Assembly: GCF_964204645.1 (NCBI RefSeq)
Contig: NC_134027.1
Coordinates: 15,470,485-15,534,484 of the forward strand
Reading direction: 5' to 3'
Length of the DNA stretch: 64,000 bases
Source: Tubulanus polymorphus
Taxonomy: Eukaryota > Animalia > Nemertea
Made by a program: the position numbers and the translations under genes. The notes beneath the pieces are model-generated. The model saw nothing but the letters and a program-made list of their open reading frames with translations, was not told the origin of the DNA and made no database searches. This document shows positions 2,915 to 39,000 of this stretch, piece by piece (positions within the stretch are counted from its first letter, which is position 1; each line of letters starts with the position of its first letter).

Positions 2915-3673
2915 TTACTCTTTACATCTTATAACTAATTCATAAATTACAGGAAAGTTATTCAAATCAATTAAATAACCATTATGATTTCTTATTTCTA
3001 ATTCAAAATTATTGAAATGTGGAATACAAGGTTTAAAATCACATTCAGCTAATTTATAATTTATTTGCGTTCCAAATTCTTTAACATTCTTCAATGGTAA
3101 AATGTTTAGTAAACCAGAATTACAAATTGTATCTTTAGTTGCTTCAAAAGTTTTTGTTGGGTCAATTAAATTGCAATAAATATAAAAATGTGTAAAAGGT
3201 ATTAAGTTTGATTTACCTTCTGCGTATGCTGTAACAATATCTGGGTTAATTCCTAACAGTTTACCTAAAGGTTTTCTTACTGTAAATTTAAATTGTTCGT
3301 CATTAGCTAACCTAATCTTTATTTTATTAGAACTAGCACTTTTTAAAATTCTAATACTAAATCCGGAATCACTTCCTAATTTAGCTCGAGCTTTTCTATT
3401 AATTTCTTGTGCTAATGTATCTAAATTATATAATCCTGGTTTTAAATATATAAAAAACCATTTATTCCTTTTTTTGTAAAAGATTGGAAAAATTAAATGT
3501 TCGAGACTTTTATCCGATATATTGTAAAATGAGTTACATAAACTTATATTTGCTAATTTCAAATCTACACAATTCTTAAATTCTCTATCTAATTGTATTA
3601 ATAAATTATGAGATTTATAATTTGTAAGTCTTCTAGAATCAACAAATATTCTGTATTCTTTTAATTCTGCCAT
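2915..3673 (-). CDS. Minor capsid (penton)-like protein
   Basis: Pattern IFVDSR...NSFYNI...PGLYNL...LLG...YIYCNLI...EIRNHNGYLIDLNNFPVIYELVI matches Polinton/virophage single jelly-roll pentons as recalled. Confidence 0.7.
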   Translation of the reverse strand: MAELKEYRIFVDSRRLTNYKSHNLLIQLDREFKNCVDLKLANISLCNSFYNISDKSLEHLIFPIFYKKRNKWFFIYLKPGLYNLDTLAQEINRKARAKLGSDSGFSIRILKSASSNKIKIRLANDEQFKFTVRKPLGKLLGINPDIVTAYAEGKSNLIPFTHFYIYCNLIDPTKTFEATKDTICNSGLLNILPLKNVKEFGTQINYKLAECDFKPCIPHFNNFELEIRNHNGYLIDLNNFPVIYELVIRCKE

Positions 3674-3695
3674 TATTTATAACATAAAAAAATTA

Positions 3696-3734
3696 CACTC
3701 ATCACCACAAGTAATTTTTTTCCCTAATAAATGG
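3696..3734 (+). promoter_or_regulatory. ~39-bp upstream element ending in the ATG of the 3731 gene; inverted copy at 10074-10112
   Basis: CACTCATCACCACAAGTAATTTTTTTCCCTAATAAATGG is nearly identical to the reverse complement of 10074-10112. Confidence 0.7.
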
Positions 3735-5045
3735 ATGAGAAGATACCATGTGAAATTTGTGGTGAACTTCTAAGAAAAAGTAATATGGCTCGACATATGA
3801 AAAAACATGATGAAAATTATAAACCCCCTAGACTAAACTGCCCAAAATGTAATAAATCATTCTCAAGAAATCATGTTAAAAAACATTCAGAGAAGTGTAA
3901 AATTAATGGCGCAACGGCTAATGTTGATAGTAACGAAAGTAATAGTAATTCTGTTGAAGTTGAACCTGAAGTTATTTGGAAAAGACCATTCTTATTCTAT
4001 GATAAGGACAATATAAAAGATCATTTCTGTGAGCCTTGTCAAATGAAATATAACCCTGAAAATATAGAAGATTGGGAGAATCATCAATTTCGTAAAGCAC
4101 ATATAGATAAAATTTATAATAAATTTGAAACTGAATTCAATGAAAGAAAAAATAATTTATTAGAAAAAATAAAATATGAGAAAACGTTACCAGATAATAA
4201 AGAAACAGTTGAAAAGTTAGAAAAACAATATAATGAATTAACAAGAAAAACATATTATTGTAAATTGATTATTACAACAAGTAATTCAAATCTACATAAT
4301 AGAACAATAAAACATAAAGAAAACGTAAGAAAATACCAGGAGCTTAATGAAGATCTATTACCAATAAATTATAAACAAAAATGCCCACAATGTAATTACG
4401 CGACCTTAAGACAAGAAGGTACTGTGTTATTTTGTAATGAATGTGGATGGCAAAAGAATTTATGGAGTGAAGAAAAAACTAGAAATTTTCTCATAAATTA
4501 AATTATCTAGATGAAATTTTTAAAATATTTTCTATAGAAGATCATACACCAGAATATATGCAATGGCTTGAAAAAATGAAAATAATAGAAAATAAAAATG
4601 GTGAAATAACTAAAAAATATATTATGAAAACAATTATTCCGTCAACATTTAACACAAAACAAAAGAAAATGTATTTATATTTATTATTCAACGATTATTA
4701 TGAAAAACCTAAATTAACAGAAGAAGATATGGAAAATATAAAAAAATATTCAAACAAATATTAATGTATCATTTGGAAAATAGAATAACAGATTCAATTA
4801 ATTATAAATTCTTTTTAAATAAGATTGTAAATTATTTAAACATAGATATTATAATTCCATTTGATGAATTAACAAACAAAAAGAAACAAAGAGAGCGAGA
4901 TGAAATGTGGAACAAGATAGAACTTTATTTAAATAAGAAAAATGAAATGGAAGAAGAAGCTAAACAAATTATACAAGAACAATAAAATGAAAATGAAGAA
5001 GCCAATAGTGATTTCGATTATGATGATATTGATTTTATGTTTTAA
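3731..5045 (+). pseudogene. C2H2 Zn-finger plus VLTF3 (poxvirus A2)-like late transcription factor, split by lesions
   Basis: ORFs 3731..4501, 4558..4764 and 4764..4985 can be joined by frameshifts. N-terminal C2H2 fingers, Zn ribbon CPQC...EGTVLFCNECG, C-terminal SINYKFFLNKI...PF..L...K....DEMWNKI. Confidence 0.55.
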
Positions 5046-8000
5046 TGTCCATAAGGTAATGTTTTTATACCATCATCTAAAATATGCCTTTTATCATCAA
5101 ATGGATTTAAACTAGTTTTTTCAACTTCATTAATGTACATCTCATGATCTTCTGATCTTAAACAATTCATTTTGTGTTTCATTACAATTGATTTATAAAA
5201 ACACTTTATATAATCTTGAAATTCTATATGTTTATCAACCACATGTTTTGTTATTCCTTTTGACTTTTTAGCTTCATGATCTTTTGTTCTATAACTATAC
5301 ATTTTACTTCTTATCCCAACAAATTCAATCATTTCATCACCCCCTAGTTCATCTTTAAATTTACCAGGAATCTTTTTATTATCATTGCTAAATAGTTCAT
5401 GATCTTTGGGATAATTGCTAAAATCAAAATGATGTTTTAATGTTTTTAAGTCTTTTGTTATGTCATTTGTCTTGATTTTTAGTATGTAACTGTCAGTATT
5501 GACTGCTATTAATGGAAATCCATAGTTAAATGTACCATCTTCAGTTGATAAATCATAAACATAATCTGATGGGTTATATATTTCAAATAAATCCTTAACT
5601 TCTTCTGTTAACTCATTTTCTACATGGCTTAAATTAAAGCAATTTGGTTTAGATTTAATCAATCCAATATTCATATTAAAACCCAATGAATTGCATAATA
5701 TATTCAATCCTGATATAGCAACTTTTCCTTTTTGAGCTAAAGATATCGTTTTGCGGTTTTTGAAACTTTTTGAACCATCTGCTGCGTAGAATCCAATGAA
5801 GAACCATTTTCTTAAATTATTTTTTTTGCATTTAATACATAATCTGGTACTATCTTTTCTTTTGTTGAAGTATTACTTTTCACTATTGCATGAATATAGA
5901 ATTCATCATTATATTTTATAGCAAAATCTTTAGGATTATTTACAAGTATTCTATAAACTGCTGATGATTTCATATGATCCATGATTCTAAATGTTTTATG
6001 TGAATAAACTTCTTCACAGAATTTCTTAATTCTTTCTAATAATTTTAAGTCTTGATTGCATAAATACCAACAATATTTATTACCCCAAACATAATTATAC
6101 ACACCTGCTGAACCATCTCCCATGAAAAATCCTTTGATAAAATATTCTTTTTCTTCTAATGTTTCGGGTTCTATGTTATAAATATTATCAATTATTTCAT
6201 CAAATGACATATGATTCATTCTTTGGAAAAATCTTTTATGTAACAATTCATCTCCAATTTTTATATCAGTTGGTTTTATTTCATCGCCATTTCGTTTAAT
6301 AAAACTATGATCTTCTGTTACATCTACAAACCCTAATTTAGTTCTAACTCTATAGATTTTCTTATTTGTTTTATGCCTAATAATATTCTTTAATTTTTTC
6401 CATCCATTTCTTGTCCAAACATCCATTAATCCATTTATTTGTATTAATTCTTTTTCACCATATGAAATATAACATTCATTTTGTTTTGGAATTATTTCTG
6501 AAATTCTTCTTATCAATATTTTATCATTACATTTTAATAATATTGGGGTGTCAGCTGTTACAGAATCAAAATATAATATTTCAATATCCTTTTCTCCAAA
6601 AAGTGGTTGTAAAACATTATAATAAAAATCATACATTAATAATTTTGATACTTCTAAAACAGTTGAACCAATGAATATAGGATTATCAAATTTCATTGAC
6701 GTTCTTTTTAATTTAACTGCTGTTAAATAATCTTCAAATCTTTTATTTCCTAAATGTCTAGGACTTGATTGTAAATGTCTTAATCTTTCAGAATTATTTA
6801 CTAATTCAATATCATTTCTATTTCTAATATTTTCGCATGTTTTTCCATAAAAACTATTGTTCATTAATTTGAAGAAATCTTTTTCAAAATCTGTTTTTGA
6901 TATGGTTCTCTGTTGAGTATTAAAATCTATATATTTTTCTAACCACTTCGATTGATTAAATTCAATATATCTATGTACTTTCTTTAATTTCATTCCTTGT
7001 TTTAGATAAAATTTTAACATTCTATAATGAACGATATAATTGTATTTATTATTTTGAGTAAGTATTAATTTTCCTGGAAAAAGATGATCTTTCGGTTTTA
7101 TTTTCTTCTGGTATTCACTTAAATAACTATCATCTACAGTTAAATGTTCTGGGCAATAAGGTAAGTTTCTTGTTTTAAACTTTATATTTTCAGGATATTC
7201 TAAATCAACTACAAAGAAATAAATAATTGGTGCTTCATCTTCTAAACTCATAATTGCGCTTTCCCAATTAGTTTTATCATCATTTTCAACTTCTGTTAAT
7301 ATAAAATTTTTGTATGGTTGAGGTTGCATCATTGCCCAACCATATAAATTATTGGCGTCAATATATAATAATTTATATTCATCATTTGCTTTAAAATATC
7401 TATCTCCCATAACACCACTAATTCCACCTCTAATTGATTTTTCAAATAATAAAACCATGTCTGGTTCTTTTAATAAATCTAATTCTACATTTGTATATTC
7501 TAAACCACATTGCCAGGTTAAACCAGGACTAGAGTAGCAATAACAAGGATCAACATTAAAATGATTCAAATTAACTTCTCTAAATTTTTCAAATATGTCA
7601 GCTAATATCATAACATCTGATTTTAAATATAAATCAACTAATTCACCATGATTTTTCATCTTAAAATGATTCCAAATATTTAATGTTCTATTAAACACTT
7701 CGTCTTTCACATACTCCTCTATTAATTGATCATAAAATTGATCTTTTAATAATTCTGTTACATTAAAATCATTGTGTGTTTTATAAAATGAATAAGGAAT
7801 TGCACCTTTATATCTCAATAATTTAAAATCTTGGTCATTTGGATAATAATATCGAGTTATTATAAAATCATTATCAACTAAACTTTTTGATAAATTATCT
7901 AATGAACTTGCTAGAAATCTATAAGAATCTAAAAATCTAATGCAACCAAATTGAAATGAAATATAATTTTCAGATGTTTTAGCTAATAGTTTAAAATCAT

Positions 8001-10077
8001 ATTTTCTTACATTTACACCATTCATAGCATTATATTCTTCTATTTCTTGATTAATTGTGCCCAATTTCTTTGATATTGTTTTATAAATAGATGGGTATCA
8101 TAGCCTGATAAATTATGAAATAATATTGGTACGAAATTAACTTTCTTTGCTTGTAAATTGCAATCTTCATGAGCAGCTCCATGATATTTTGAATTTAAAT
8201 GATCATGATCTCTTAACTTTTTTATCAAATGAATAAAAACGTTGAATAACAACAGTGAGTTGCATAATTAAAATCAATTTCATCTTCTATTGTCATAACT
8301 ATTCTTTTATTTTTGTTTAATAATTTTGAAAAATCACTTTCTAATTCAATCATTTTATCACAAAAATCATTAAATACATCTTCACCTCTAAAAGAAATAT
8401 ATTGACTTTCATATAATTTGGGATAATTTGATTTGACGTAAATTCCATAAGCAGCAGCTCTTTGATGAACTTTTTTAATTGTATTTATAATTGGTGGGTC
8501 TTGTATTGTGTCTTCATTTCCTTTATCCATTGATTTAAATAATTGCTTTTTGTTATATATTTCTTTTCTATCTCGATCAGTTAATTCTTTATTCAACGAT
8601 ACAAAATCCCCATAAATTACAAAGGGAACAATATTCTTAAATTTATGATTAGTAAATTTCAATTTATAATCTTTTTCTGTTGGCATTATTAATTTGCAAA
8701 AATCTTTATTATCACATAATTCTTTATGTTTTAATAATGTATTCTCTGTCATAAATTTAGATAAACATTTTCTACATAGATAAATTTTACGATGATGATC
8801 ACTTTCTGTTCTAAAGAATAAATCAATTTGTTTTAACCACATATAATGTTCATTTTCATCTTTTTTGTAATATAACAAATCTATAGCATTTTCATCATCA
8901 TAATATTCTGTTAAATATAAAGCTTCCAATGTATAATCTTTAATATTTTCACCTTTTGTCTTTGGTAATTGCATTAATTCAAATACATTTATTTTTAAAT
9001 TATTAACTTTTTCTATTTTAGGAATCATTTTTATAGTTACTGGATATTGATCAATTTTATATAATGTTTCATATTTCCGGTAATTTGTTATTCTAAAACT
9101 ATGCGTCATATCTTCTGTTGGGTGTAAACAACTAATAATTGACCATAGAAAACATTTATTATCTTCATTTTGAACATTTATTACTGCTTTTGTTGTAAAT
9201 GGTAATTTAATATAAGATGATGCTTTAATATCCTTTTCTGTTGTAAAGTTTGAATCATTTTTAAACATTTTATTACTTTTTGATGTTTTATTCCTTTTTG
9301 TATTGTAAACATTTAAATCTAAATATATAATTTCATTCAATGTTAAGCCAGAACCCTCAAAATATCTTTCTTCAATATGACGTTTAAATTCATTAAATAT
9401 TTTTTCTAACTTCTCTTTTATTTGCGTTTTTGAAATAATTTCTTCAGAGAGTGTTTGAATATTATAATCCATTTTTTCTTCTGACTTTATAAAACTTACT
9501 TTCCCAGAGATACTAATTTTTGGATATTCAACATCTGTTACCAAATCTAGTATTTTTTCTATTATTTCATTAAATTTACTATAATCTTCTATTGTTGTAC
9601 CTTTAAAAAATCTAAATATAATAGCTGCAGGACCAATTTTACTATGTAATGTTTCTAAAATTTCAATTGTATCTTTTATTTCTAGTGAATCAATATAATT
9701 TCTAACATTTTCCATGTAAGGTTTATTTGAAATGGATTTAGTTTTTGAATTTGGTTTTTTTACTTTTTGAGGTTTATTGTTAAAATAATCTTTTCCTAAA
9801 ACATTATTACTCAAATTTTGATGGTGTTTTTGTGATTCGAGATGTCTATTATAATTCCTTTTTGTTATAAATTCATTACAAACTTCACATTTTATTTCAT
9901 CCACATTCATATTTTCTAATCGTTCTTTTCTTTCATTGGAATTTTCTGAAGTTTCAAAATCTATAACATTTTTTATATGATTTGACGTTTTTTCATGTCG
10001 TGATTTTTGGGATTTATCGATGTATTTTTTACAATATTAACATTATTGTTTTCTGGCTGGTGTTCATTCTCCCCCAT
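5042..10077 (-). pseudogene. polB: Protein-primed family B DNA polymerase with endonuclease-VII-like insert and an intein; several frameshifts
   Basis: ExoI FVIYGDF, RDHDHL...GAAHEDCN, ExoII FHNLSGYD, ExoIII YLKSDV, PolA YIDANNLYG, PolB KLMNNSFYGK, PolC YFD|TDS, KIPGKFKDE, DDKR. Spread over ORFs 8225..9910, 8040..8252, 5812..8064 and 5042..5707; likely ATG at 10077. Confidence 0.95.
5498..6564 (-). mobile_element. Intein with LAGLIDADG homing endonuclease inserted in PolB motif C
   Basis: Block A SVTADTPILL directly after YFD; block B VTEDHSF; LAGLIDADG motifs FIKGFFMGDGS and FFIGFYAADGS; block F YVYDLSTEDGTF; terminal Asn followed by TDS. Length is 1067 nt, one base short of 356 codons at an A8 run (5820-5827). 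Confidence 0.93.
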
Positions 10078-10112
10078 TTATTAGGAAAAAAAATTACTTG
10101 TGGTGATGAGTG
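10074..10112 (-). promoter_or_regulatory. Inverted copy of the 39-bp element, ending in the putative PolB ATG (10077)
   Basis: Reverse complement matches 3696-3734. Confidence 0.7.
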
Positions 10113-10113
10113 G

Positions 10114-10416
10114 TGTCTCGACCGCACGACCTCTGGTATGAAAGCCCACTTTTCCAATTACTGTAGTATTAGACCAGAGAGACGACCAGAGAACAAGAAC
10201 TCAGCACGACGAACAGTGTAGTCTTACAAAAATGCCTCCTGATTTATTCATACACAGATATTTATATGCAGCAAATATGACGGCCACAGACCGTGAATAA
10301 CAAATAGTATTGAATTCGGAAATATACAGTTTACAGTTTACTGGACAGTTCAGTCACATTCGAAACAACAACATAGTTGACAGAGTTGAGTCACTCCATA
10401 GGACCGAGTCCCGACA
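10114..10416 (-). repeat. 3' LTR of the BEL/Pao element (~303 bp)
   Basis: Begins TGTC and ends GACA. The PPT lies immediately inside it on the minus strand. Confidence 0.75.
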
Positions 10417-12790
10417 TTCTCCCGGCGCGAAGTTTCTGCAAGGCTGCAACGGCAGCAGCACGTTTTGGGCGGATGATCCTTTTTTTTACTCGCTTTTTCG
10501 GGTTGTGGCTCCTGTTTCGCGAATTCTTGATGATTTATTTCGAGCGGGTACAACTTATTAATGGGTCTACTCGTTCGACCCTTAGCGGTTCGCACGACCG
10601 CCGATCGCACACAGTTATCATTTCCACGATTCAACTTTTCGATGATACCCAAACGCCATGTAAGACGAGGGTTATCCGCGTGGATTTGAACGATATCACC
10701 TATTTTCACTATTTCCTGATTATTTCCGGACTGATTATGTCGCTCCCTGAGTGCGGTGAGGTACTCGTTTTTCCATCTACCCCAGAAATGCTGCACGAGT
10801 ACGGCGCGATGTTCTTGCCGACGATTCAACTCGCTATGACCATAATCTGGATCAGCCAACGTATCAGCATCAGTAATAGGTTGCGGAAGAGCCGATATTC
10901 TGCGCCCATAGATTAAGTGAGAAGGAGTTAGTGGTTCTAGTTCTAAAACACGGCTATCAACATATGTTAAAGGTCTATCATTAATTATACATTTACATTC
11001 AATAACAACAGTATTCAATTCATCGTAGTTAAGTTTTGCACGACCGAGGACTCTTTTCAGACAGCTTTTTACCATCCCAACTAACCTCTCCCAAAATCCT
11101 CCGAACCACGGAGCTCTTTTTGGAATGAAACGCCATTCGACCCCATTCTGGGCCATGAATTGAAAGATTTTCAGTGATTTGAATAAATTCGAGAGTTCCT
11201 CGAATGCGCATGTAACAGTTGAAGCATTATCAGAATACACAATACGTGGAAACGATCGACGAGCACAAAACCTACGAAATGCTAAAAGAAAGGCATCACA
11301 GGTAAGGTCAGTTACAAGTTCTAAATGTAACGCTCTAGTAATAGCGCATGTTATAAGACAAATATAAACCTTTGCATCAGATGATTCGGTTCTTACGATT
11401 AAAGCGCCTGTATAATCAATACCAACTACTGAAAAGGGTGGCGCTTCTTGAACTCGTACGGCGGGTAATGGAGCCGGATCGGGAAGCACGAATGGTTTAC
11501 CAGTGCCAGCCTTAATACAAGGCACACACTTGTGTATCAAAGAGGTAATACGACGACGAATTTGTGTTACCCAATATTTCTGTCTAACAAACGCTATTGT
11601 TGCATTAACACCTTCATGCATTACCTTAATACAATGGACGTAACGAAGATACAAAAACGTGAATCGATGGGTTCTCGGCAACAGGATCGGGTACTTCGTT
11701 TTCACTGGAAGCCTAGCGTTCTGTATTCTCCCCCCGCAACGAAGGACGCCATCAGACAAAACAAGTTTCAACTGTCTTACCAAAACTTGTCGTGGCTTCG
11801 AATTGGAACGTAAGGAATGAATAATATCACCAAATCCTTCACTCTGAATACCGAACACCCATTGATTCTCCGCGAATTCGCGTTCTTCTACAGTGATTGG
11901 ATCTGAAAGAGGGACAAAACTTTTACGCAGTAACATATTTACAAATCTGTATACACGAAACGTCACTCTCAACAGGTCATTCAACGAATTAAAGCTATCA
12001 ATATCCATAGCCTTATGTATACCGTAACAAGTATTCGATCCAACTGACGTAGCTGTAACAGTAACGAAAGAATTATTTGCGAAATCAACAGTATCGAAAT
12101 GAAAATTTGGTAGCCGAGACTCTGATAGCCATGTCGGCCCTTTCCACCATAATTCACACAAAGTAAGAGTATCCGCAAAAACCCCACGTGAAAGAAGATC
12201 TGCAGGATTACTTTCACTGTTACAGTAATGCCAGTATGACATGCATTTAGAGGTCAACCTTCGGATTTCTAAAATCCGATTCATAACAAACGTACTCAAT
12301 TGTCTATCGGAATTAATCCAGGACAGAACAATTTGGCTATCAGACCAAATATGTGTATCAATATGTAGTCGAGAATCCATCGATTCTTTAATGTAAGTAG
12401 CCAAACGTGATGCGAGCAAGGCAGCCATGAGTTCCATTTCTGGAATTGTTCTCACTTTGATAGGAGATTCCCTATTCTTAGAAATGACAAATGATGTCTT
12501 GCCCTCAACCTTGAGATACCCAACGGCCCCATAGGCTGACTTGCTTGCATCACCGAAAACATGAAGTTCACACTTCTTACCGATGATCCCGAAATCAAAA
12601 TATGCTCTGGGCAAAAAACAACTCTAGTACTAATAGATAAATCACGTGAAATAACTGCCCATTGATCACGAAGCTCCAAAGATAAAGGTTCACCCAGTCA
12701 AGACCGGATTTCCACAAATTCTGAGTAAGTTTCTTTGCTAAAATAGTGACTGGAGTAATTAATCCTAGTGGATCGTAAACCCTGGCCGTT
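10350..12790 (-). pseudogene. pol: BEL/Pao pol fragment (end of RT, RNase H, integrase)
   Basis: ORF 10350..12614 plus frameshifted upstream segments. The C-terminal tail reading into the LTR probably results from a frameshift. Confidence 0.9.
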
Positions 12791-13004
12791 TCACTCGGTG
12801 TTGTCATATCGCGGAAAGACGGAATCGCGGAATTTTCCAAAAACGCGGAATTTCTTCATTTTTACTATAAATAGTAAACGGGGTTTTCCCACGGGGATAC
12901 CCACTGTCGGACAGGGCACCGGACCCAGGTTTTCAACATCGGGAATTAGTATTTGATAATTTATTATATCGCCAGTCAACAACTTTACGATACTGTTCCA
13001 AATA

Positions 13005-13087
13005 ATGGAGAACCTAGGCAATACGTGCTTCGCGAATTCAGTGATACAGAGTATCGCTGCATTAACTGAAGGAATACAAATCGATGG
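13005..13087 (+). pseudogene. Ubiquitin-specific protease Cys-box exon fragment (second copy 16632-16714)
   Basis: MENLGNTCFANSVIQSIAAL followed by a GTACGT donor. Matches the USP catalytic NLGNTC(F/Y)xNSxxQ box. Confidence 0.65.
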
Positions 13088-13579
13088 TACGTAAACGTAG
13101 GATTTGTGATGACATCATGGGTCATTCTCCAGGACTCATTTCCGAGTTAAGATTTGACTCTGGTCTCTGGATTTAAAACATTGGAAATGAATTGATTCTA
13201 AGTAACTGAGAGTTAACTCACAACTGTGGAACTGGATCGATGTCAGACGAAAATAAATAGACATTATGTATATTTCATTCTGGCTTAGGATTGTTCATGC
13301 GTGTTGTGTGTCTACATTGTTGTTATAAGCGAATGTGGTTTATCTTTTAGAATTAAATGATATGAAAGATTATAAAATGGTTTCGTTTTTTTAATGTTTA
13401 GTTTGTGACTGCTATAACATATATGTCCCTATGCTAATTATTTGGATCAAAAGAATCTTATTGGTACCGGTACTGGACGGCCGTAAAATTATAATAATTT
13501 CAAAGGAATTTGAACCGGTACTTGTTTGGTCGTAGGATTTCATGTTTGCAACCATCTACAACTACGGTCCTACACCTCG

Positions 13580-14030
13580 AGTAGTTAGGGTATGTCACTA
13601 TGGTACCGCAGTGGAGTGAGGAGTGAGGAGGGAGGAGGGATGACGTCATACCGGAAGTGACGTCATCCAAGATGGCGGCCGGAAGTGACGTCATCCAAGA
13701 TGGCGGCCGGAAGTGACGTCATCCAAGATGGCGGCCGGAAGTGGCGGTTAAAATTCAAATTTCAAATTTTTGGCGGGAAAATTCAAAATTTTTCCGTTAA
13801 ATCCAAATCAAATTATTGACAACAAATCCAAATCAATTTATTGGCGGTTTTAAATCCAAATTTATTTATTGGTATGATTGAATCCTAGATGGCGCTTACG
13901 CATTCCTATGCGTGTTTATGGCGGTGTTCAATCCAAATTTATTTATTGGTATGATTGAATCCTAGATGGCGCTTACGCATTCCTATGCGTGTTTATGGGA
14001 AAAGTTGAATCCTAGATGGCGCTATTACGA
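13580..14030 (+). mobile_element. Probable terminus (TIR) of a second Polinton (second copy from 17207)
   Basis: Starts AGTAGT, a typical Polinton end, followed by internal tandem repeats and then virus-like ORFs. No partner TIR was found in the window. Confidence 0.55.
13640..13780 (+). promoter_or_regulatory. 3x28-bp ETS/ATF-CRE/YY1 site array plus E2F site (second copy 17267-17407)
   Basis: Unit GGAAGTGACGTCATCCAAGATGGCGGCC at 13653, 13681 and 13709; TTTTGGCGGGAAAA near 13767. Confidence 0.7.
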
Positions 14031-14122
14031 GATCATATGTGTACGACCAAAAATTAAAGAAAACCAAAAATTAAAAAAACAATGTAAAACAATAAAAAAA
14101 ACATTTTATTCACCGTTAAAAT

Positions 14123-14662
14123 TTAGTTTAAACACGGTTTAAATCCGAATTCCTTGGCGCACGAGACGTGAATATAAGCGTCGCAGCAGTCTGTCTTTTG
14201 TTTAGTTATTTCCAAACATACTAAACACGTGTTGATGCCACAAAATAAAGTTATGCAGTTATAACAAAAATTTTCTTCATACCCTTCACACGTTTTAAGT
14301 TCGCTTAAACAGGGCCAGAATATAGTTTTATCACAACAATGAAGCAAATCCTCTTGCGCGTGACAACGATAACAGTCTTTTTTCGCGATATGTTTGATAA
14401 TCCTAAAATGTGCCATGCAATTCTCGATAGGACATTCGAAATCATGTTGAACGTCTAACCATCGAGCGTTCACTAGCCAGCAATCTTCACAAATCGGTTT
14501 CCTGCAACACGTCGTTACTCAAAAACTACCGTATGTAATTGTCGTATTACAATATTTGCAAATCGCAAATCCGGTAGACCAGTCGACATGATTTATTTCA
14601 TGTTCCGTGGTAGTTGATTTTTTTAGGAAAATGTTTTCCACGGTAATTAAATCGCCAGACAT
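14123..14662 (-). pseudogene. Cys-rich (Zn-binding) protein with one in-frame stop (second copy 17810-18349)
   Basis: ATG at 14662 is in frame with ORF 14123..14473 across one TGA. Many CxxC and CC motifs. Confidence 0.55.
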
Positions 14663-15066
14663 TTTCGTAAATCACGTCTCGTTTATGCGAGTGTAAACAA
14701 AGCGAGTGCGTAGTTAAATCCTAGATGGCGCTAGTCCGTAATCCTATACAGATGCGTGCGCATGCGTGCGTTTGTGTGTACGTGTGTAAGCGAGTGACGT
14801 CATCCTAGATGACGCCATGATTACATAATCCTATGCGAGAGCGTGTATAGAGAGGGGAGCGGGGTAAAATCCGAGATGGCTTCTTTTGACGGCTATTGTG
14901 AAATCATAGACAAGTTTAGGCGAACACATTTCGTAATAACATGTAAAACCATAAAACGAGTTCGGGCAAGTCATTTTCTGACAATAAAAACGCGTTGCAA
15001 ATCCATAATTTAGTCATTCTGCTCAGAGACTTTGAACCGTCAACATCATACAACATCATCGTAATA

Positions 15067-15893
15067 ATGGATTCGGCCAGCGGACAAAGTATTTTAGAAA
15101 TATCTAATACACCAGTTAAAGCAAAGTCATCGCTTCAATCTAGAAAAAGAAAACACCCCTCGCTGAAACTCGACTTTAGTAAGTTTCTACTTATTTCCCG
15201 TATTCGAAACCGTCAAATATTAAGACATACGTATACTGATATATGATATTTTATTGTTCTTTTAGGTTCGATCGTTAATGACAACGCTGTCGCCGGCCCG
15301 TCGAAAAGTGCGAACTTGCGTAACACCTGGAACAATGACCCCGAACCCCATTATCTAGGATCTCTTGTTTACGCGGTGCGAAAACGTGGCAGGGGGTAAA
15401 ACGTGTAGATTTACGGTCCTACGAGTGCTGTGAACGAAGAAAACAACTGTATCCCACTAAAAACGGTATTTCGTTCGATCTCCAAGAGTGGGTGCATATA
15501 GATTTTTTTAAATCCGATATCGAACACGAAATTGCGCGCGTTAAAGAAGACATTGAATACGTGGGTGTAATGACTGTTGGTCGTACGAACTTTATCAAAA
15601 TATATAGGTCTAGTCACGATCATCGTATTTACGTAGATATCCGAAAATACGATCTATTCGATGAACCTCTCGGTGTTTCCCCGACTAGATGCGGTGTAAA
15701 ACTAACATTGGAACAATGGAAAAAATTGAAAGACATTAATTTTAATGACGATATACCCGAACTAGCCAACATGACGCCCTGTTGGTATGATTCGAGTCAC
15801 TCGAATCAGGAATACAGGTGTCCGTACTGCGCAAAAGACACTTCTCGAGTACGAAAAACACCTGAATACGGTGTAATGATCACCCAAGTATAA
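15067..15893 (+). pseudogene. Double-PC4-domain ssDNA-binding protein, spliced, one frameshift
   Basis: Intron 15179-15265 (GTAAGT..TTTAG). Domain 1 VDLRSY...PTKNGISFDLQEW; domain 2 VDIRKY...PTRCGVKLTLEQWKKL. Confidence 0.75.
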
Positions 15894-18753
15894 TTAAAGT
15901 AGTTTAAACGATATTAATTAGATAATATTTATATCATAACCGAACAACAAAATATGTAAAAATACATCAATTTATATACGTTAGTTTGCGTTAAACCCTT
16001 AGATAGAAATAAGTATCCGAAATGACTAATCCAGGACTTCATTAAGATCCGCTCTAACCAAAGAGGATTAACTAAAGTGAGTTTCTATCTTTTATGAAAT
16101 TTATGGTTTTTTCGTGTATGACCTATGTTTATCTACAATATTTATAAAACGGCCCCATAGGCTGACTTGCTTGCATCACCGAAAACATGAAGTTCACACT
16201 TCTTACCGATGATCCCGAAATCAAAATATGCTCTGGGCAAAAAACAACTCTAGTACTAATAGATAAATCACGTGAAATAACTGCCCATTGATCACGAAGC
16301 TCCAAAGATAAAGGTTCATCCCAGTCAAGACCGGATTTCCACAAATTCTGAGTAAGTTTCTTTGCTAAAATAGTGACTGGAGTAATTAATCCTAGTGGAT
16401 CGTAAACCCTGGCCGTTTCACTCGGTGTTGTCATATCGCGGAAAGACGGAATCGCGGAATTTTCCAAAAACGCGGAATTTCTTCATTTTTACTATAAATA
16501 GTAAACGGGGTTTTCCCACGGGGATACCCACTGTCGGACAGGGCACCGGACCCAGGTTTTCAACATCGGGAATTAGTATTTGATAATTTATTATATCGCC
16601 AGTCAACAACTTTACGATACTGTTCCAAATAATGGAGAACCTAGGCAATACGTGCTTCGCGAATTCAGTGATACAGAGTATCGCTGCATTAACTGAAGGA
16701 ATACAAATCGATGGTACGTAAACGTAGGATTTGTGATGACATCATGGGTCATTCTCCAGGACTCATTTCCGAGTTAAGATTTGACTCTGGTCTCTGGATT
16801 TAAAACATTGGAAATGAATTGATTCTAAGTAACTGAGAGTTAACTCACAACTGTGGAACTGGATCGATGTCAGACGAAAATAAATAGACATTATGTATAT
16901 TTCATTCTGGCTTAGGATTGTTCATGCGTGTTGTGTGTCTACATTGTTGTTATAAGCGAATGTGGTTTATCTTTTAGAATTAAATGATATGAAAGATTAT
17001 AAAATGGTTTCGTTTTTTTAATGTTTAGTTTGTGACTGCTATAACATATATGTCCCTATGCTAATTATTTGGATCAAAAGAATCTTATTGGTACCGGTAC
17101 TGGACGGCCGTAAAATTATAATAATTTCAAAGGAATTTGAACCGGTACTTGTTTGGTCGTAGGATTTCATGTTTGCAACCATCTACAACTACGGTCCTAC
17201 ACCGCGAGTAGTTAGGGTATGTCACTATGGTACCGCAGTGGAGTGAGGAGTGAGGAGGGAGGAGGGATGACGTCATACCGGAAGTGACGTCATCCAAGAT
17301 GGCGGCCGGAAGTGACGTCATCCAAGATGGCGGCCGGAAGTGACGTCATCCAAGATGGCGGCCGGAAGTGGCGGTTAAAATTCAAATTTCAAATTTTTGG
17401 CGGGAAAATTCAAAATTTTTCCGTTAAATCCAAATCAAATTATTGACAACAAATCCAAATCAATTTATTGGCGGTTTTAAATCCAAATTTATTTATTGGT
17501 ATGATTGAATCCTAGATGGCGCTTACGCATTCCTATGCGTGTTTATGGCGGTGTTCAATCCAAATTTATTTATTGGTATGATTGAATCCTAGATGGCGCT
17601 TACGCATTCCTATGCGTGTTTATGGGAAAAGTTGAATCCTAGATGGCGCTATTACGAGATCATATGTGTACGTGGAGGTGAGGGGGGAAGTGAAGTTAAA
17701 TCCTAGATGGCGCTTTTCCCTGAGTACGGGCAAATTCGAGACAAAGAAAACCAAAAATTAAAAAAACAATGTAAAACAATAAAAAAAACATTTTATTCAC
17801 CGTTAAAATTTAGTTTAAACACGGTTTAAATCCGAATTCCTTGGCGCACGAGACGTGAATATAAGCGTCGCAGCAGTCTGTCTTTTGTTTAGTTATTTCC
17901 AAACATACTAAACACGTGTTGATGCCACAAAATAAAGTTATGCAGTTATAACAAAAATTTTCTTCATACCCTTCACACGTTTTAAGTTCGCTTAAACAGG
18001 GCCAGAATATAGTTTTATCACAACAATGAAGCAAATCCTCTTGCGCGTGACAACGATAACAGTCTTTTTTCGCGATATGTTTGATAATCCTAAAATGTGC
18101 CATGCAATTCTCGATAGGACATTCGAAATCATGTTGAACGTCTAACCATCGAGCGTTCACTAGCCAGCAATCTTCACAAATCGGTTTCCTGCAACACGTC
18201 GTTACTCAAAAACTACCGTATGTAATTGTCGTATTACAATATTTGCAAATCGCAAATCCGGTAGACCAGTCGACATGATTTATTTCATGTTCCGTGGTAG
18301 TTGATTTTTTTAGGAAAATGTTTTCCACGGTAATTAAATCGCCAGACATTTTCGTAAATCACGTCTCGTTTATGCGAGTGTAAACAAAGCGAGTGCGTAG
18401 TTAAATCCTAGATGGCGCTAGTCCGTAATCCTATACAGATGCGTGCGCATGCGTGCGTTTGTGTGTACGTGTGTAAGCGAGTGACGTCATCCTAGATGAC
18501 GCCATGATTACATAATCCTATGCGAGAGCGTGTATAGAGAGGGGAGCGGGGTAAAATCAGAGATGGCTTCTTTTGACGGCTATTGTGAAATCATAGACAA
18601 GTTTAGGCGAACACATTTCGTAATAACATGTAAAACCATAAAACGAGTTCGGGCAAGTCATTTTCTGACAATAAAAACGCGTTGCAAATCCATAATTTAG
18701 TCATTCTGCTCAGAGACTTTGAACCGTCAACATCATACAACATCATCGTAATA

Positions 18754-19580
18754 ATGGATTCGGCCAGCGGACAAAGTATTTTAGAAATATCTAATACACC
18801 AGTTAAAGCAAAGTCATCGCTTCAATCTAGAAAAAGAAAACACCCCTCGCTGAAACTCGACTTTAGTAAGTTTCTACTTATTTCCCGTATTCGAAACCGT
18901 CAAATATTAAGACATACGTATACTGATATATGATATTTTATTGTTCTTTTAGGTTCGATCGTTAATGACAACGCTGTCGCCGGCCCGTCGAAAAGTGCGA
19001 ACTTGCGTAACACCTGGAACAATGACCCCGAACCCCATTATCTAGGATCTCTTGTTTACGCGGTGCGAAAACGTGGCAGGGGGTAAAACGTGTAGATTTA
19101 CGGTCCTACGAGTGCTGTGAACGAAGAAAACAACTGTATCCCACTAAAAACGGTATTTCGTTCGATCTCCAAGAGTGGGTGCATATAGATTTTTTTAAAT
19201 CCGATATCGAACACGAAATTGCGCGCGTTAAAGAAGACATCGAATACGTGGGTGTAATGACTGTTGGTCGTACGAACTTTATCAAAATATATAGGTCTAG
19301 TCACGATCATCGTATTTACGTAGATATCCGAAAATACGATCTATTCGATGAACCTCTCGGTGTTTCCCCGACTAGATGCGGTGTAAAACTAACATTGGAA
19401 CAATGGAAAAAATTGAAAGACATTAATTTTAATGACGATATACCCGAACTAGCCAACATGACGCCCTGTTGGTATGATTCGAGTCACTCGAATCAGGAAT
19501 ACAGGTGTCCGTACTGCGCAAAAGACACTTCTCGAGTACGAAAAACACCTGAATACGGTGTAATGATCACCCAAGTATAA
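18754..19580 (+). pseudogene. Duplicate of the double-PC4 gene
   Basis: Same translated sequence at offset 3687. Confidence 0.75.
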
Positions 19581-21014
19581 TTAAAGTAGTTTAAACGATA
19601 TTAATTAGATAATATTTATATCATAACCGAACAACAAAATATGTAAAAATACATCAATTTATATACGTTAGTTTGCGTTAAACTCTTAGATAGAAATAAG
19701 TATCCGAAATGACTAATCCAGGACTTCATTAAGATCCGCTCTAACCAAAGAGGATTAACTAAAGTGAGTTTCTATCTTTTATGAAATTTATGGTTTTTTC
19801 GTGTATGACCTATGTTTATCTACAATATTTATAAAAATATTTATGTTTTTTAGGACTAAATAAAACATTAATTGAATAAAAGATTTCATTTTTGACTCAT
19901 TCTGAGTTAACAATACGTTAATCTAGCATTTCGTTTCTATCCAGACCCATGATACCATATACCGACAAAGAAGGCAATTAATTGATTTAGATCAATACAC
20001 GACCACGATTGGGGAAAATAGGTGTGAGCAAAACCAATTACCTAGACTAGTTGCAGATGGGTCGATAGTATCCAAACACCATTAATTATATGTGGAAGAC
20101 GAAGGCAATTAAGTGATTTAGATCGGAGACACGTCCGAGATGGGAAATTATGTGTGAGGTTTCAAACCAATTACACTAGCAATAATTCGAACATTTTTAG
20201 TGCTCATAGCGCTGAGGTAATTAAATTGTTTAGAAAAAACCGAACAGATGGTCCTATATGCTGGGTGATATTAGACCCGAGTATCAAAAACACCGTTAAT
20301 TATATGTGATAGAATCCTCAAATACTTTGAGTAAACTGTTAGACTATGAGAATTAATCAACTAATTAGTCGTCTGACTTAGACCCATAAATAAGGGGGTA
20401 GTTTTAGGACAAATCATTTCCAAGATGTCTGTTATTGGAGCACTAAAATAGGACCGGTTATTGCGCAATACACAGTTATATTTTTATTCTGTAAACTACA
20501 ACATTCAAACATAGAACTGTAACCAATCAATATTGAGCAGCTGTTTCAGTCAACAACGATCAATAATAGAATAATGGAGAACAATAGAAATGCGGTCCAA
20601 TCGGACCAGTTATTGTGCAATACACAGTTAACAGTAAACAATACAATATTGAAACAGATATATACAATCGAAATTACATTTTTGATATCTAAGACCTTCA
20701 GTGTTATAATTTATAATTTTGTCCAGAATTCTTTAATTACTGGATTGTTTCCAATCATTTCTTCAATTTCTGGTAAATATCTGACTACTTCACTAAATGC
20801 TAATCCTAATATTTTGAATTTTTCATATTTTATTAATCTACCTACTCTTCTCAGTTTTCTTTCAAAACCAGCACTGATATCTATGTTCTTTTTAACCCAC
20901 AGCCCCCAAGAAATCCCCTCAGTTTCTTCATCAAACATTGAAAACCCTATATTTAGATGACCCCCGAAAATGATGTGGTCCCATAGGTGATTTGCTTTTC
21001 TATTTAATATGGTT

Positions 21015-21440
21015 TTATAACTTTTTTTTTAAGATATCAGTAATTTCAGCAAATGAAATAACTTCTACACTTTGTATTTCCGGAAAGTTTAAATGTTCTG
21101 TGTCAATGATTAATTTAGATTTTAAAAACTCGTTCAACTCGTCTCCACTCATTTTCTTAGTTTTCGATTCTTTGAGTCCCAACAGCAATTTAAGTCGCAT
21201 TGCTGGTAATTTTGGTAATTGTAGTTCGCGCGGTAATTGTTTATTATGTATTACATCACTCAGAATTTTCACCATTTCTTGATGATAGTCCAAATGTTCT
21301 TGTAATTTTTGTGAAGTTTGTTCGTCAATTACGAGAGTTTCATCCTCCATTTCTATTGATTCCTGAGTTTCACTATCTATCGTTTCTGGTTCCTCATCCG
21401 TTGGTTGACTTGGAATTTCTGGTTGATCTCTGTATTCCAT
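21015..21440 (-). CDS. Hypothetical protein with acidic N-terminus
   Basis: 141-aa ORF with a true ATG and no recognisable motif. ORF 20711..20938 may be a continuation. Confidence 0.4.
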   Translation of the reverse strand: MEYRDQPEIPSQPTDEEPETIDSETQESIEMEDETLVIDEQTSQKLQEHLDYHQEMVKILSDVIHNKQLPRELQLPKLPAMRLKLLLGLKESKTKKMSGDELNEFLKSKLIIDTEHLNFPEIQSVEVISFAEITDILKKKL

Positions 21441-21788
21441 TTTAATCTAAAAGATGTCGTGAAAATGAATTACTGTACTTAAATATGTTTAAAGGTTTCC
21501 CTACTTCATAATAACTACAAAAAACGGTACTTACACTTAGATTTAGAACTGTAAACTGTGTTTTGAGAGAGAATATCCAATACGTACTATGTATGTGAAA
21601 GTTGATTTCTAACTGCCGACGTGGCGCACGTTCGACCAAACTAATTACTTCTGCACAGATGTTCTTTATGATGATGTTAATTAATTCTTTAGAATTGAAA
21701 ACAAGATATATTTGGCAACATATGTTTTAGTAGTAAGCAAAAGCTATGTATTATATACATACAAAGCTCAAATAGAATTGCCAGCTTT

Positions 21789-22463
21789 CTAACCACTGAT
21801 CAAAACCTCAGAATGCGGTTGATTCTGTGAAATACTATTCCATAATTCAACAAATGTCTTTGCTTTATCCAGTTGATCTAAATATAACTGTAAATCTAGT
21901 TTATTGGATTTAATTATGTTTTCCTTCTTTTCTAAAGGTCTTAGATTCTTCCAATTCCATATTAGCTTCTTATTATAATCATCACTCATGTCAAATTTAG
22001 AAATCGGCAACACGTGATCAATATGAAAGTATTCACCATAATTATCTATATTCATTTTATCATCGAATTGAAATATAATCCATGATTTTAAGAATTCATC
22101 TGAACAACCCAATAAATTAGATAGTGTTTCTGAATGTGTTTCTTTGTTGAATAATTGTGTTAATCTAGATCTTAAACATTGTTTTAATCTAAAATTAAGA
22201 TCTGTTTGATATCTTTCTCTCATATATTCTGTCATATAATCATTATAAGCTTCTCTATTATCTTCTCGATATTGTTTGGTATATAGTTTAAAACAAGTTT
22301 TACAGCAATATTGAAAACCATCTTTGCTAATCTTACGCTTATTAAGTTCTGTTAAAGCTAATTTATCTAATTCACATTTAGAACACTTCTTGTAGTATAT
22401 ATTTATAAGTGTTATTTGTAATATTGATAGTTTGTGGTTGTTCTGGTTCCATTTATTATACAT
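21789..22463 (-). CDS. NCLDV-type HNH/endonuclease-VII-like protein with N-terminal CxxC pair
   Basis: CSKC...CKTC; LRSRL...LLGCS...QF...M...NYG..FHIDHVLP...FD...NLRPL...N..K. Intronless. Confidence 0.75.
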   Translation of the reverse strand: MYNKWNQNNHKLSILQITLINIYYKKCSKCELDKLALTELNKRKISKDGFQYCCKTCFKLYTKQYREDNREAYNDYMTEYMRERYQTDLNFRLKQCLRSRLTQLFNKETHSETLSNLLGCSDEFLKSWIIFQFDDKMNIDNYGEYFHIDHVLPISKFDMSDDYNKKLIWNWKNLRPLEKKENIIKSNKLDLQLYLDQLDKAKTFVELWNSISQNQPHSEVLISG

Positions 22464-22713
22464 ATTTTTTTACTAAATTGATTTTAGAAGTTCAATGATT
22501 TATATCATGTATTATTTCAATCACACTTTACTAACACTTTTAATGTTTAAAAATCTAACTCATACAAATATGAATATTGAAATAATGTTGTAAATATATA
22601 CTTTTATATCTATTCTATAAGAGCTCGTTAATTACTCACACTTTTATATTGAATAATCTATCAATTTATATGTTATTCATATATATTTTATTCATATATA
22701 TGAATATTTTAAG

Positions 22714-22902
22714 AGTAATAGGGATAATAGGCTTTCATATCAAAGGTTGAAGGGGTGAGTGAGTAAAAAAATGAAAATAATAATAATTTACAGTTGAATT
22801 AGGAGTGTGCGCGACTAATTCAACTGTAAATTATATTATTTTCATTTTTTTACGAGCTCGACCTTTCGACCTTTGGTATGAAAGCCTATTATCCCTATTA
22901 CT
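22714..22902. repeat. ~190-bp fold-back (palindromic MITE-like) element
   Basis: AGTAATAGGGATAATAGGCTTTCATA...TATGAAAGCCTATTATCCCTATTACT, with arms pairing almost to the centre. Confidence 0.8.
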
Positions 22903-36077: not shown

Positions 36078-39000
36078 ATGGCTTTACAGAAAACCCGTCA
36101 TCGCTGCTTTGCACCTATATTTAAACTCTTAATATCGGACTTAGTACTAGCATTCAAAAACATTTATGCTGACTCTCAACAGCTCAAGGACCCTTACATC
36201 CATTTTCTGCTTAGATGGAAGTTATTGCTGTCGGATTATATCGGAAAACCATTGACTGACAAATATGTTAGTCAAACTGAATTTCGAAAATTTGTGTTGG
36301 GTAGGCCTACAGACGAAACCACGGAGATTGATATAGCTGCTCTTATCCACTCCATTGGCGATTATGTGAGGGATTTCATACAAAGAATTCTGAATTCTCC
36401 GGATAAATCGGACACCACAACTGACGGCGAAAAATCAGAATATACTCAATTTCAACCAGAAACTGGTATTTATGTACTTTCGGGTGGTTGTCTCGGGCTT
36501 ATGTTTTCATTGTACAAACGACAACGACGAAATGGAAATATATCAGCAAAGAGAAATCTAACTGTTTTGGGACGTATAATTGTATTGGATAAAAAGACTG
36601 AAAAAATACCGGTGGAGTTACGATGTCGTGACAGAGATGGACTATATGTATTCAGGAGAGAATATATGAAATTATTGAAATTACTTGATAATACAATTAT
36701 TCGTATAGTAAACGAACAGGAGTTTAAAAAACAAAAGAAAGCTATGATAAAGGTAATAAAAATTCTGCTGTTACATCATTTGAATCAGCTACATAACGGA
36801 TTACAAAATATTCGGTTCCTGAACTTCGCTGAAAAAGCTGAAACACTGAAAAGCTGAAACGCTGAAATAAAAACGCTGAAATTTCAGGGAATTTCCGAAA
36901 AACGCCGAAATTTCAGGGAATTCCCGAAAAACGCTGAAATCGTGCTAGGTACCGACAATACACGTTTTGAAATGTTTTCCGGGCCGGTGTCCGCTGACGA
37001 GTCCTGAACCGTGTTTTATGCTCTACCTTCGGTTACAGAGACATGCCTTAAGGTCGTCGTTCTGATCGACTTGATCGATTGCGTGGATTGTTAGATGTGG
37101 ATTGTTAGATGTGGATTGTGCGATTGTGCGATTGCGCATGCGCGGACTGGATAACACCTCTCAACCTTCGTGACCGAAAATTTCGCGAAAAATACCTTTA
37201 AAAACGTTATTGGACTAACTATAATTGCACAAAAACCATTCATAAAAGCTTCAGGATACTGGACATGGACTATCCAGCTACTAAGAACTTTGAAGGCTAG
37301 TTTTAATCAAGTTAAATCAACCTGATTACCAACCTGTGGAAAATGTCGAAAACCGGAAGTCGGCCATATTGGACAACTTAAAAACAAAAATATGCCATTC
37401 CCATTCTTCTACACATATATCGACATTATTAGGTGGCAACCTACACAATGGTGGCACACAGGAGTAGTCGTCCTGCTTATGCTGATGATAGCACACGATA
37501 TTCATACAATCCTGGCCCACGTACACAAAAATACCCGTGCGGAGTGTGCACGAAGGCAGTGCAATGGACGCAGAAAGGGATTGCTTGCGACATATGTAAC
37601 CTATGGTTCCACACAAACTGTGTTGGCATGTCTGACCGGCTATATGAACTTGAGACGTCCACCTCATTGTGGACATGTTACATATGCGGTACACCGAACT
37701 TTTCATCTACTCTCTTCACAACTACAGCGGCTGAATCGTTAAATATCAGCCACCCATCACTTCTTGACATATCGAGGACCTCGTCTCTTGACACTGATGG
37801 TAACACCTCGTCGCAGCATTTGGGTACACCAATACATGCCTCGTCACCGATAATGCCTAGAGGAACACAAAATAGACTTGAAACCCAGGATAGCTTTTCA
37901 AACTTGCATAGCCCATCATCGTCATGTGACACCTCTTCGCGAAACCCAGTAGCGGTGAAATGCAACGCGACGACGCGAACACTAGTGATCAACTTTCAGA
38001 GCATCCGCCCAAAAAAAGCCGAACTTTGGAATCTAATCACGTGCACTGATCCTGACATAATCCTCGGTTCTGAAACCTGGTTAAAGCCAGAGATACATAA
38101 CGCCGAAATTTTCCCGGAAGGTTACGACGTCTACCGCAAGGACAGGCATGATGAACATGGCGGCGTCCTTGTGGCGATCAAAAAACTATTAATCTCACAG
38201 GAGATCCAGATAAACACCACATCAGAGGCAGTATTTGTCCGCTTAGAAACCGACTGTAAAAACGAACCAATCATCGTCGGCTCGGTATACCGAACACCCT
38301 CACAATCAAGCGACGAACAGATGGACGCCATCTGTAAAGTCCTAGACGCTACAACCTCTAATTCTAAACCATCCACTTACTGGTGCGGTGGCGATTTCAA
38401 CTTACCAGACATCAACTGGGAAGATACCTGCATCGTCGGAAATCAGTACAAGAAATCTGTAAACGAGCTCTTTCTCGACAAAATTGACAACCTCGGACTG
38501 CAGCAAGTGAATAACCAACCCACCAGAGGTGATTCCATCCTCGAGATTTTCCTATCAAACAAACCAGGTCTAGTGACGCGGTGTGAAGTCCTACCTGGAC
38601 TTAGTGACCACGACATCCTACTCGTTGACAGCCGTATCCGCCCAACGAGAGCACGACCGATACCTCGTACAGTCAGCGTATGGAAAAAAGCCAAATTCGA
38701 CGAAATGAGAACAGACACCGCTAGATTCACACATGACTTCTGCACTCGTCATTCGACCTCAGAAGCACCAATCAATACCAAGTGGATAGAACTGCAAAAT
38801 CACCTACTCAAAATTCAAAAAGATCATGTTCCAACGACGACTACATCGACAAAATTCCACCAACCATGGATAAATCACGAACTCAAAAAGCTTTCCCGTC
38901 GTAAAGCCAGAGCTTGGAAAAAAGCCAAATCCAAATCAAAACGATCAAAACGATCAAAGGAACGATATCGTAGACTAAAACGCGAAACCAGGAAGGCAAA

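Follow-up and report, generated by a model that had tools for sequence, protein, structure and literature searches.

A window of 64,000 nucleotides, by which we mean the whole stretch of DNA analysed here, contains part of a Polinton transposon whose protein-primed family B DNA polymerase (pPolB) is interrupted by an intein in catalytic motif C, the site called Pol-c. We consider it very likely that this is a class 1, cysteine-independent LAGLIDADG intein with Ser1 and Thr+1, of which intact copies are predicted from their residues to splice and home. The intein belongs to a known family of alleles, in a class of host protein and a genomic setting for which we found no earlier description. The window copy itself is decayed and unable to make the protein.

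The insert at 5498-6564 is a true intein, exact at its coordinates, as a preliminary description of the window had proposed. On the minus strand the translation runs EILYFD/SVTADTP at 6564 and GFPLIAVN/TDSY at 5498 (slashes mark the intein ends). Sequencing runs bear this out: four runs, all from one study, contain at least half of the sampled words, and a second study with the same species label supplied raw reads, here called X5. Both borders are fixed at the DNA level, because 42 X5 reads (24 + 18, with 31 starts) join 5497 to 6565 and skip exactly these 1067 bases. The N-terminal piece matches TIGR01445 (intein_Nterm) with 32.9 bits (curated cut-off 24.5), and the insert, with an X at its frame break, scores 327 bits over residues 1-351 against a profile of 135 inteins of RNA-primed PolBs; of 200 shuffles 187 were scored, the highest at 6.8 bits. 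A Hint profile match, the absence of which the preliminary description had named as a refutation, is thus present. Scanned in separate pieces, the window intein stays under the Pfam cut-offs for Intein_splicing (PF14890; 28.6 bits on the N-piece, cut-off 35.8) and LAGLIDADG_3 (18.2 bits, cut-off 22.5); its intact relative P0005 lies above both (42.4 and 34.2 bits). A Hedgehog or bacterial intein-like domain was also considered, and was ruled out by the endonuclease, the position in a catalytic motif and the existence of empty alleles.

All the splicing and nuclease features read from the letters at first sight, namely Ser1, TEDH, two LAGLIDADG motifs, block F, the terminal Asn, Thr+1 and a penultimate Val, are where they had been placed. 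In addition, residues 63-64 are Arg-His, with His64 lying 22 residues before the block-B His and aligned with a His in PDB chain 9hth_A. An Arg or Lys followed by His at this same distance occurs in 12 of 12 pPolB rows, and the His of this motif NX is required for splicing by three Ser1 inteins (PMC10189870). Ser1, DVTEDHS, both LAGLIDADG aspartates and the block-F Asp are kept in all seven complete pPolB inteins. Of 279 complete relatives, 129 have Lys as the penultimate residue, 124 have His and 3 have Val, so that doing without the His characterises the family while Val is exceptional. The intein frame is open in the relatives P0003, P0005, P0006 and P0007. A structure model was built for P0006, not for the window intein, from a 91-row alignment (mean pLDDT, the predicted local distance difference score, 78; 84-98 in the 10-residue blocks of the intein). 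It matches intein-endonuclease structures (7qsu, E=2e-16; PI-PkoII, PI-PfuI, PI-SceI and I-DmoI), and its named top matches in a viral fold library are PolB entries of large DNA viruses, among them Megavirus, Pandoravirus and Heterosigma akashiwo virus.

The protein around the intein is of the protein-primed Polinton type, as claimed. The extein matches PF03175 with 62.7 bits (cut-off 25.8) and has no PF00136 match; its nearest intein-free relatives are P0143, at 84-85% identity and with an uninterrupted motif C (YFDTDSY), and P0144, at 71%. In the polymerase tree it nests among pPolB1 proteins; the preliminary description had named a grouping with the RNA-primed PolBs of nucleocytoplasmic large DNA viruses as evidence against its reading.

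Filled and empty copies of the motif-C site coexist. Besides the 42 exact skips, another 45 X5 reads omit the intein but have eight letters replaced next to it, 8 omit it with end points moved a little, and 91 and 100 others leave the window sequence at the two intein borders. At 80% likeness, X5 depth is 562-724 in the C-extein bins and 148-268 in the intein bins, with a step at both borders. From the skipping reads and the depth step it follows that both alleles are present and that the filled one is a sizeable minority, so that the survey for intein-plus and intein-minus copies that had been suggested gave both states. A second family likewise has both, with P0129 empty and P0006 and P0126 filled within the same 90% cluster. 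As for the element, 494 X5 reads run out past 10162 into varied sequences (agreement 0.36), and it is therefore a multicopy family integrated at many sites, in line with the integration that had been claimed; X5 depth over the intein (160-270) is 7-11 times that over the adjoining flank (20-30). Only 1137 of 33139 X5 reads are at least 99% alike to the window copy. At the frame break of the intein 152 of about 184 X5 reads differ in length from it; the break is hence not typical of the family.

The closest relatives of the intein, 46-62% identical, sit in other Polinton polymerases, one of which is of the other polymerase class. The best matches are protein-primed polymerases with the same intein (P0003, P0004, P0005, P0006, P0007, P0009 and P0011), among which P0003 (1693 aa) and P0007 are full-length and open; further intein-bearing protein-primed polymerases are P0138, P0157, P0237 and P0248. 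Inteins of RNA-primed PolBs follow at about 40%. Motifs related to those that the preliminary description listed for Mimivirus are seen across the viral intein family, and its view of Mimivirus-like inteins as the nearest ones does not hold, the other Polinton inteins being closer and the sister clade containing T4-like phages as well. Its wider claims fare better. The insertion at YxD/TDS and the kinship to other inteins found there bear out the Pol-c site, and kinship to giant-virus PolB inteins is apparent from the matches at about 40%, from the viral PolB fold matches and from the loci of the IMG/VR database printed with the FPL signature, 9 of 10 of which have names of giant-virus metagenome-assembled genomes (MAGs).

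Phylogenies agree on the unity of the group. A tree of 149 inteins, left after 285 rows had been reduced to 181 at 80% identity and then to those of >300 and <480 aa plus all pPolB rows, unites the seven pPolB inteins in one clade with support 100, and in a maximum-likelihood tree of 62 chosen rows this clade has 100/100, with a GxPL clade of 14 viral inteins as its sister (92/91). The interval between blocks F and G measures 19 positions in 7 of 7 pPolB and in 37 GxPL viral inteins; 219 other viral inteins and 8 from topoisomerases have 20 positions there, and 8 archaeal inteins have 21. Loci L162-L177 were read only for motif-C inteins, as an outgroup; with six archaeal Pol-c inteins in that role, the best tree nests the pPolB and GxPL inteins among those of viral RNA-primed PolBs. 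In the separate intein and extein trees that the preliminary description had called for, the intein lies beside those of viral RNA-primed PolBs and the extein with pPolB1, and within the Polinton subclade the two branchings agree by eye. The same intein family also occurs at the Pol-c site of the Pol delta of Chloropicon primus (P0071), a cellular algal polymerase, and, as a clade of its own, in eight topoisomerase II proteins at DxD/TDG, which resembles the polymerase site (carriers include P0087, P0103, P0105, P0106, P0109 and P0114, and L154 and L157). The inteins of the T4-like phages P0013, P0015 and P0017 are nested among giant-virus ones, possibly a transfer between eukaryotic viruses and phages; P0013 scores 547 bits against the phage DNA polymerase family phrog_262.

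Within Polintons the intein has diverged in parallel with its host. All 11 intein-bearing pPolB1 rows of a 145-row polymerase tree fall into one 26-row subclade (support 99), mixed with 15 empty ones, and at least seven changes of intein state are needed there. The inteins branch as (window, P0003), (P0157, (P0005, P0004)) and P0006, in the same pattern as their polymerases, and the identities of intein and extein run side by side (window-P0003 62/58, window-P0005 47/45, window-P0126 47/41, P0005-P0004 74/67). The exception is P0007, whose intein is 43-49% alike to the others, and whose polymerase has no BLAST match to theirs and a much higher PF03175 score; by eye it has a VSR-like segment, presumably as in the pPolB2 class. 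The parallel divergence implies that there was probably one old crossing, at the base of the Polinton intein clade. We infer a single old transfer of an intein from a viral RNA-primed PolB, most likely of a giant virus, into this pPolB1 subclade, which would have been followed by long co-divergence, by repeated loss or re-invasion and by at least one jump into the other class of Polinton polymerase; the direction from virus to Polinton is likely. Compared with viral sites, the DNA flanking the insertion point agrees on average at about 12 of 18 bases (11.9 for the GxPL group, 11.1 for the others), as one would expect if the crossing were old or had gone through several steps, an argument also made for Mimivirus and archaea (PMC549080).

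Among 250 pPolB1-like proteins, 3 bear the intein, 228 have an empty site, 13 have no readable motif and 6 end before it, a share of 3 in 250 that understates the true one because proteins over 1332 aa were excluded. When contigs of viruses, metagenomes and genomes were scanned with alignments (the best 80, the best 80 and 16 loci; L001-L161), no intein fell in a protein-primed polymerase; single-protein scans of viral contigs found a single weak locus with the intein piece as query and nothing with P0003; GenBank phages gave two partial matches; and a profile search of 50% representatives had no intein-bearing pPolB in its best 150. Among the empty pPolB1 sites, 40 of 228 read DCDS instead of DTDS, many of them in the P0158-P0261 group; intein-bearing members of that group have Thr+1, and DCDS may be a changed homing site. 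P0149, a close relative of the Polinton polymerase, is filed in UniRef as Sulfurimonas sp. and is probably eukaryotic DNA in a bacterial bin.

The residues suggest how an intact copy would work along the class 1 splicing pathway (PMC4031507). An N-O shift would form the ester at Ser1, aided by the histidines of motif NX and block B; Thr+1 would accept the N-extein, and the terminal Asn would cyclise without either of the C-terminal histidines, rejoining the catalytic DTDS motif. As the intein splits DTDS, failure to splice would leave the polymerase inactive. The excised endonuclease would then cleave motif C in a copy that lacks the intein, and mending of the break with the filled copy as template would make that site filled too.

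A possible hint of a large virus that may have shared cells with such elements lies at the gene starts. TAAATG, which we take to be a late-promoter element, stands at the gene starts at 2293(-), 2898(-), 3731(+) and 10077(-), with TAAATAATG at 3673(-). This context is found at 32 of 435 ATGs of the element and at 4 of 8 open reading frame (ORF) starts (P=0.0016). In salmon gill poxvirus, TAAATG is marked for many of the conserved genes (PMC4542343), and we treat the poxvirus-like start context only as a lead towards a virophage-like habit: the lifestyle claimed in the preliminary description gains no more than a hint from the motif. A strand bias of T5NT in the polymerase gene (5 sense, 23 antisense) was discarded as promoter evidence, as an A-rich coding strand yields the same.

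Several observations weigh against an old capture from viruses and against inteins that still work. Three of the 14 rows of the sister clade are the T4-like phage-type polymerases P0013, P0015 and P0017. Adding the archaeal outgroup lowers support to 78/100 for the pPolB clade and 71/90 for pPolB plus GxPL, and a basal position of the pPolB inteins is not rejected by the approximately unbiased test (p-AU 0.47). The congruence of inteins and exteins was judged by eye, from two trees and few lineages. Furthermore, the window intein lacks both the penultimate and the block-F His, which are usual and not obligatory, and it is not one open frame, with a single frame shift near 5815-5830. Finally, the same species still has empty sites that match exactly, which could be a sign that homing is feeble or has ceased.

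On the phage rows and the test result one can build another route or direction, from a T4-like phage or prokaryotic element to a Polinton or from Polintons to large viruses, and presence in topoisomerase II and in algal Pol delta tells us that this family moves between unlike genes. However, the best rooted tree puts the pPolB and GxPL inteins deep among those of viral RNA-primed PolBs, the short F-G interval is a minority state farthest from the archaeal outgroup, and the phages remain a small part of the sister clade, so we hold this course to be rather doubtful, although it is the most serious competitor. Another alternative is the scenario of the preliminary description, in which the intein homed fairly directly from a Mimivirus-like virus into a virophage-like Polinton in a co-infected cell and was then carried into an animal germline. 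It draws on the rank of RNA-primed PolB inteins next after those of Polintons, on the giant-virus names of the FPL loci, on the TAAATG starts and on a report of insect Polinton-like viruses together with entomopoxviruses (PMC11296320). But a recent event is largely refuted by the Polinton inteins being nearest and diverging in parallel with their polymerases; the site DNA is only distantly like that of viruses, the GC content of intein (0.256) and extein (0.237-0.256) is similar, and the window revealed no recognisable giant-virus gene. We therefore regard it as quite unlikely. What stands of the cross-subfamily homing is a crossing from an RNA-primed PolB, which was probably old, not recent.

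It might also be that no copy splices or homes any more, and that the carriers are replicated by intein-free helpers. The broken window copy, the scarcity of reads closely alike to it, the two absent histidines and the persisting empty sites would all suit such a relic; yet most reads differ from the window at the break, P0003 and P0007 are open over their full length, lineages no more than 44-47% alike have retained the catalytic residues, and some functional inteins lack either the penultimate or the block-F His (PMC4031507), which makes it an unlikely state of affairs for the family as a whole. That an AT-rich protist, viral or symbiont element was misjoined to animal DNA is highly improbable. 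The GC content does change from 0.235 in the element to 0.378 in the flank, the window has no single-copy host gene, and no listed contig bridges the junction at 10162 with 31 bases on each side; against this, element and flank are present together in four runs, two studies and one species label, the reads leave the terminus into varied flanks, and the frame breaks and private differences are those of a decaying insertion. Our preferred account thus remains an old capture from a viral RNA-primed PolB and co-divergence with the Polinton polymerases.

A more far-reaching version, namely a self-sustaining intein lineage in several animal hosts, captured once from a giant virus, still splicing and homing in both polymerase classes, and borne by helper-dependent carriers with poxvirus-type promoters, is tentative and the balance is against it; if it were true, such carriers would explain how the donor of the intein was met.

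Regarding the host, judged from the flanking transposons only, it is very probably an animal and likely an invertebrate. The flanks contain a BEL/Pao element, a long interspersed nuclear element (LINE) with a PHD domain and pieces of Helitrons, and among 120 listed relatives of the LINE seven have an organism name: six are from lancelets or molluscs, namely Branchiostoma (3), Pinctada (2) and Nucella (1), and one is a bacterial MAG record. Inteins have been stated to be absent from metazoan genomes (PMC8529194), those of eukaryotes being known from fungi, algae and large viruses (PMC5784728).

Comparison with known systems sets the find in context. The Mimivirus R322 intein (351 aa, YGD/TDS; PMC549080) shares the motif-C site, Ser1, the terminal Asn, Thr+1, a similar length and the LAGLIDADG nuclease, but, compared with it (by description only) and with archaeal Pol-c inteins, the window host protein is a protein-primed Polinton polymerase, and the intein falls into a separate clade of pPolB inteins. 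Endogenous viral polymerase inteins on algal and labyrinthulid nuclear scaffolds (PMC10710043) are likewise inteins in viral-type polymerases on nuclear chromosomes; they are from algae and a protist, whereas ours sits in a multicopy integrating Polinton of a probable animal, with empty alleles alongside. HNH and VSR insertions in Polinton pPolB2 (PMC10748475) also place a nuclease domain within a Polinton polymerase, and nuclease domains there have been suggested to be intein invasions (PMC11071308); in contrast, the window insert interrupts the catalytic motif and combines a full splicing domain with a nuclease of the LAGLIDADG type, and the available text and supplement of PMC10748475 speak of HNH and VSR domains, with the words intein, Hint and LAGLIDADG absent. 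The cysteine-less inteins PolB16, Psp Pol-1 and Mvu-M7 Pol-3 (PMC10189870) have in common with it Ser1, Thr+1 and the Arg/Lys-His of motif NX (His64); unlike them, it is contiguous, endonuclease-bearing, without the penultimate His and in a eukaryotic transposon. With Polintons/Mavericks and adintoviruses (PMC8502044) the element shares a pPolB beside a terminal repeat, multicopy integration and a BEL/LINE-rich context, but the portion of that account available to us mentions no intein. Nor does the word occur in the available parts of PMC11296320 and bioRxiv 10.64898/2026.10.13.758929, and in the open literature, subscription papers and one key review not covered, no prior description of a Hint-bearing Polinton intein was found.

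An intein present in tens of percent of related Polinton copies, beside empty target alleles, makes it testable whether splicing and homing can persist in a sexual multicellular lineage when a multicopy element, not homing between alleles, carries them. It also records, at the molecular level, that Polintons have met large viruses with RNA-primed PolBs, which bears on the question whether animal Polintons have a virus stage sharing cells with large DNA viruses. Moreover, with this clade the natural cysteine-independent inteins and the LAGLIDADG nucleases gain members from a eukaryotic context.

The features of the element and its flank are collected in Table 1.

Table 1. Annotated features of the element, the intein and the adjoining flank, by position in the window
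Feature	Position	Strand	Basis or remark
Candidate minor capsid (penton-like) ORF, unconfirmed	2915..3673	-	weak DUF5901 match, E=0.02
46-base inverted copy (93%) of terminal-repeat segment, ahead of zinc-finger ORF	3696..3741	.	
C2H2/zinc-ribbon ORF of element, 256 aa	3731..4501	+	all matches under curated cut-offs
C-extein of protein-primed PolB, starts with Thr+1 (TDSY)	5042..5497	-	
Intein, Hint + LAGLIDADG endonuclease, Ser1 to Asn	5498..6564	-	in polymerase motif C; 1067 bases, one frame break
Blocks F-G: F4 Asp (VYD), no block-F His, penultimate Val, terminal Asn, short GxPL-type spacing	5498..5566	-	
Second LAGLIDADG, block E, FFIGFYAADG	5774..5803	-	
Frame break of window copy, between endonuclease blocks D and E	5815..5830	-	
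First LAGLIDADG, block C, FIKGFFMGDG, acidic catalytic residue	6112..6141	-	
N-terminal splicing region: Ser1, motif NX His64 (RH), block B TEDH (His86)	6238..6564	-	TIGR01445, His positions
N-extein, exonuclease + polymerase part of protein-primed PolB	6565..8097	-	PF03175; 84% to P0143
N-terminal part of polymerase gene; breaks near start and around 8040-8300; TAAATG start context	8098..10077	-	layout by eye against full-length P0144
Terminal repeat of element, ends ...TTACT at 10162	10067..10162	.	
Flank: BEL/Pao long terminal repeat retrotransposon adjoining element end	10163..12623	-	Peptidase_A17, DUF5641 and integrase domains

The element extends past the left edge of the window, in which no integrase, packaging ATPase, protease or major capsid gene was seen. 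For the penton-like ORF there was no relative in the PDB or among viral contigs, and a single-sequence model reached a pLDDT of 36. The 46-base segment precedes the polymerase start (10067-10112) and, inverted, the zinc-finger ORF (3696-3741), ending at the gene start in each case. A total of 334 X5 reads leave the window sequence at 3674, so that other copies must differ there.

Elsewhere in the window, 12522-19580 is a near-identical tandem duplication of about 3.6-3.7 kb with a PC4-domain ORF and a cysteine-rich ORF, and its 28-base repeats are rich in GGAAGTGACGTCA and CAAGATGGCGG. A second AT-rich patch (20711-22469) contains small ORFs and one of 226 aa that by eye resembles an HNH-type nuclease, and it is adjoined by a 69-base inverted repeat at 22714-22902. 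At 36813-42893 lies a DNA element with 234-base inverted ends, inside which there is an intact LINE ORF of 1111 aa with PHD, endonuclease and reverse transcriptase parts.

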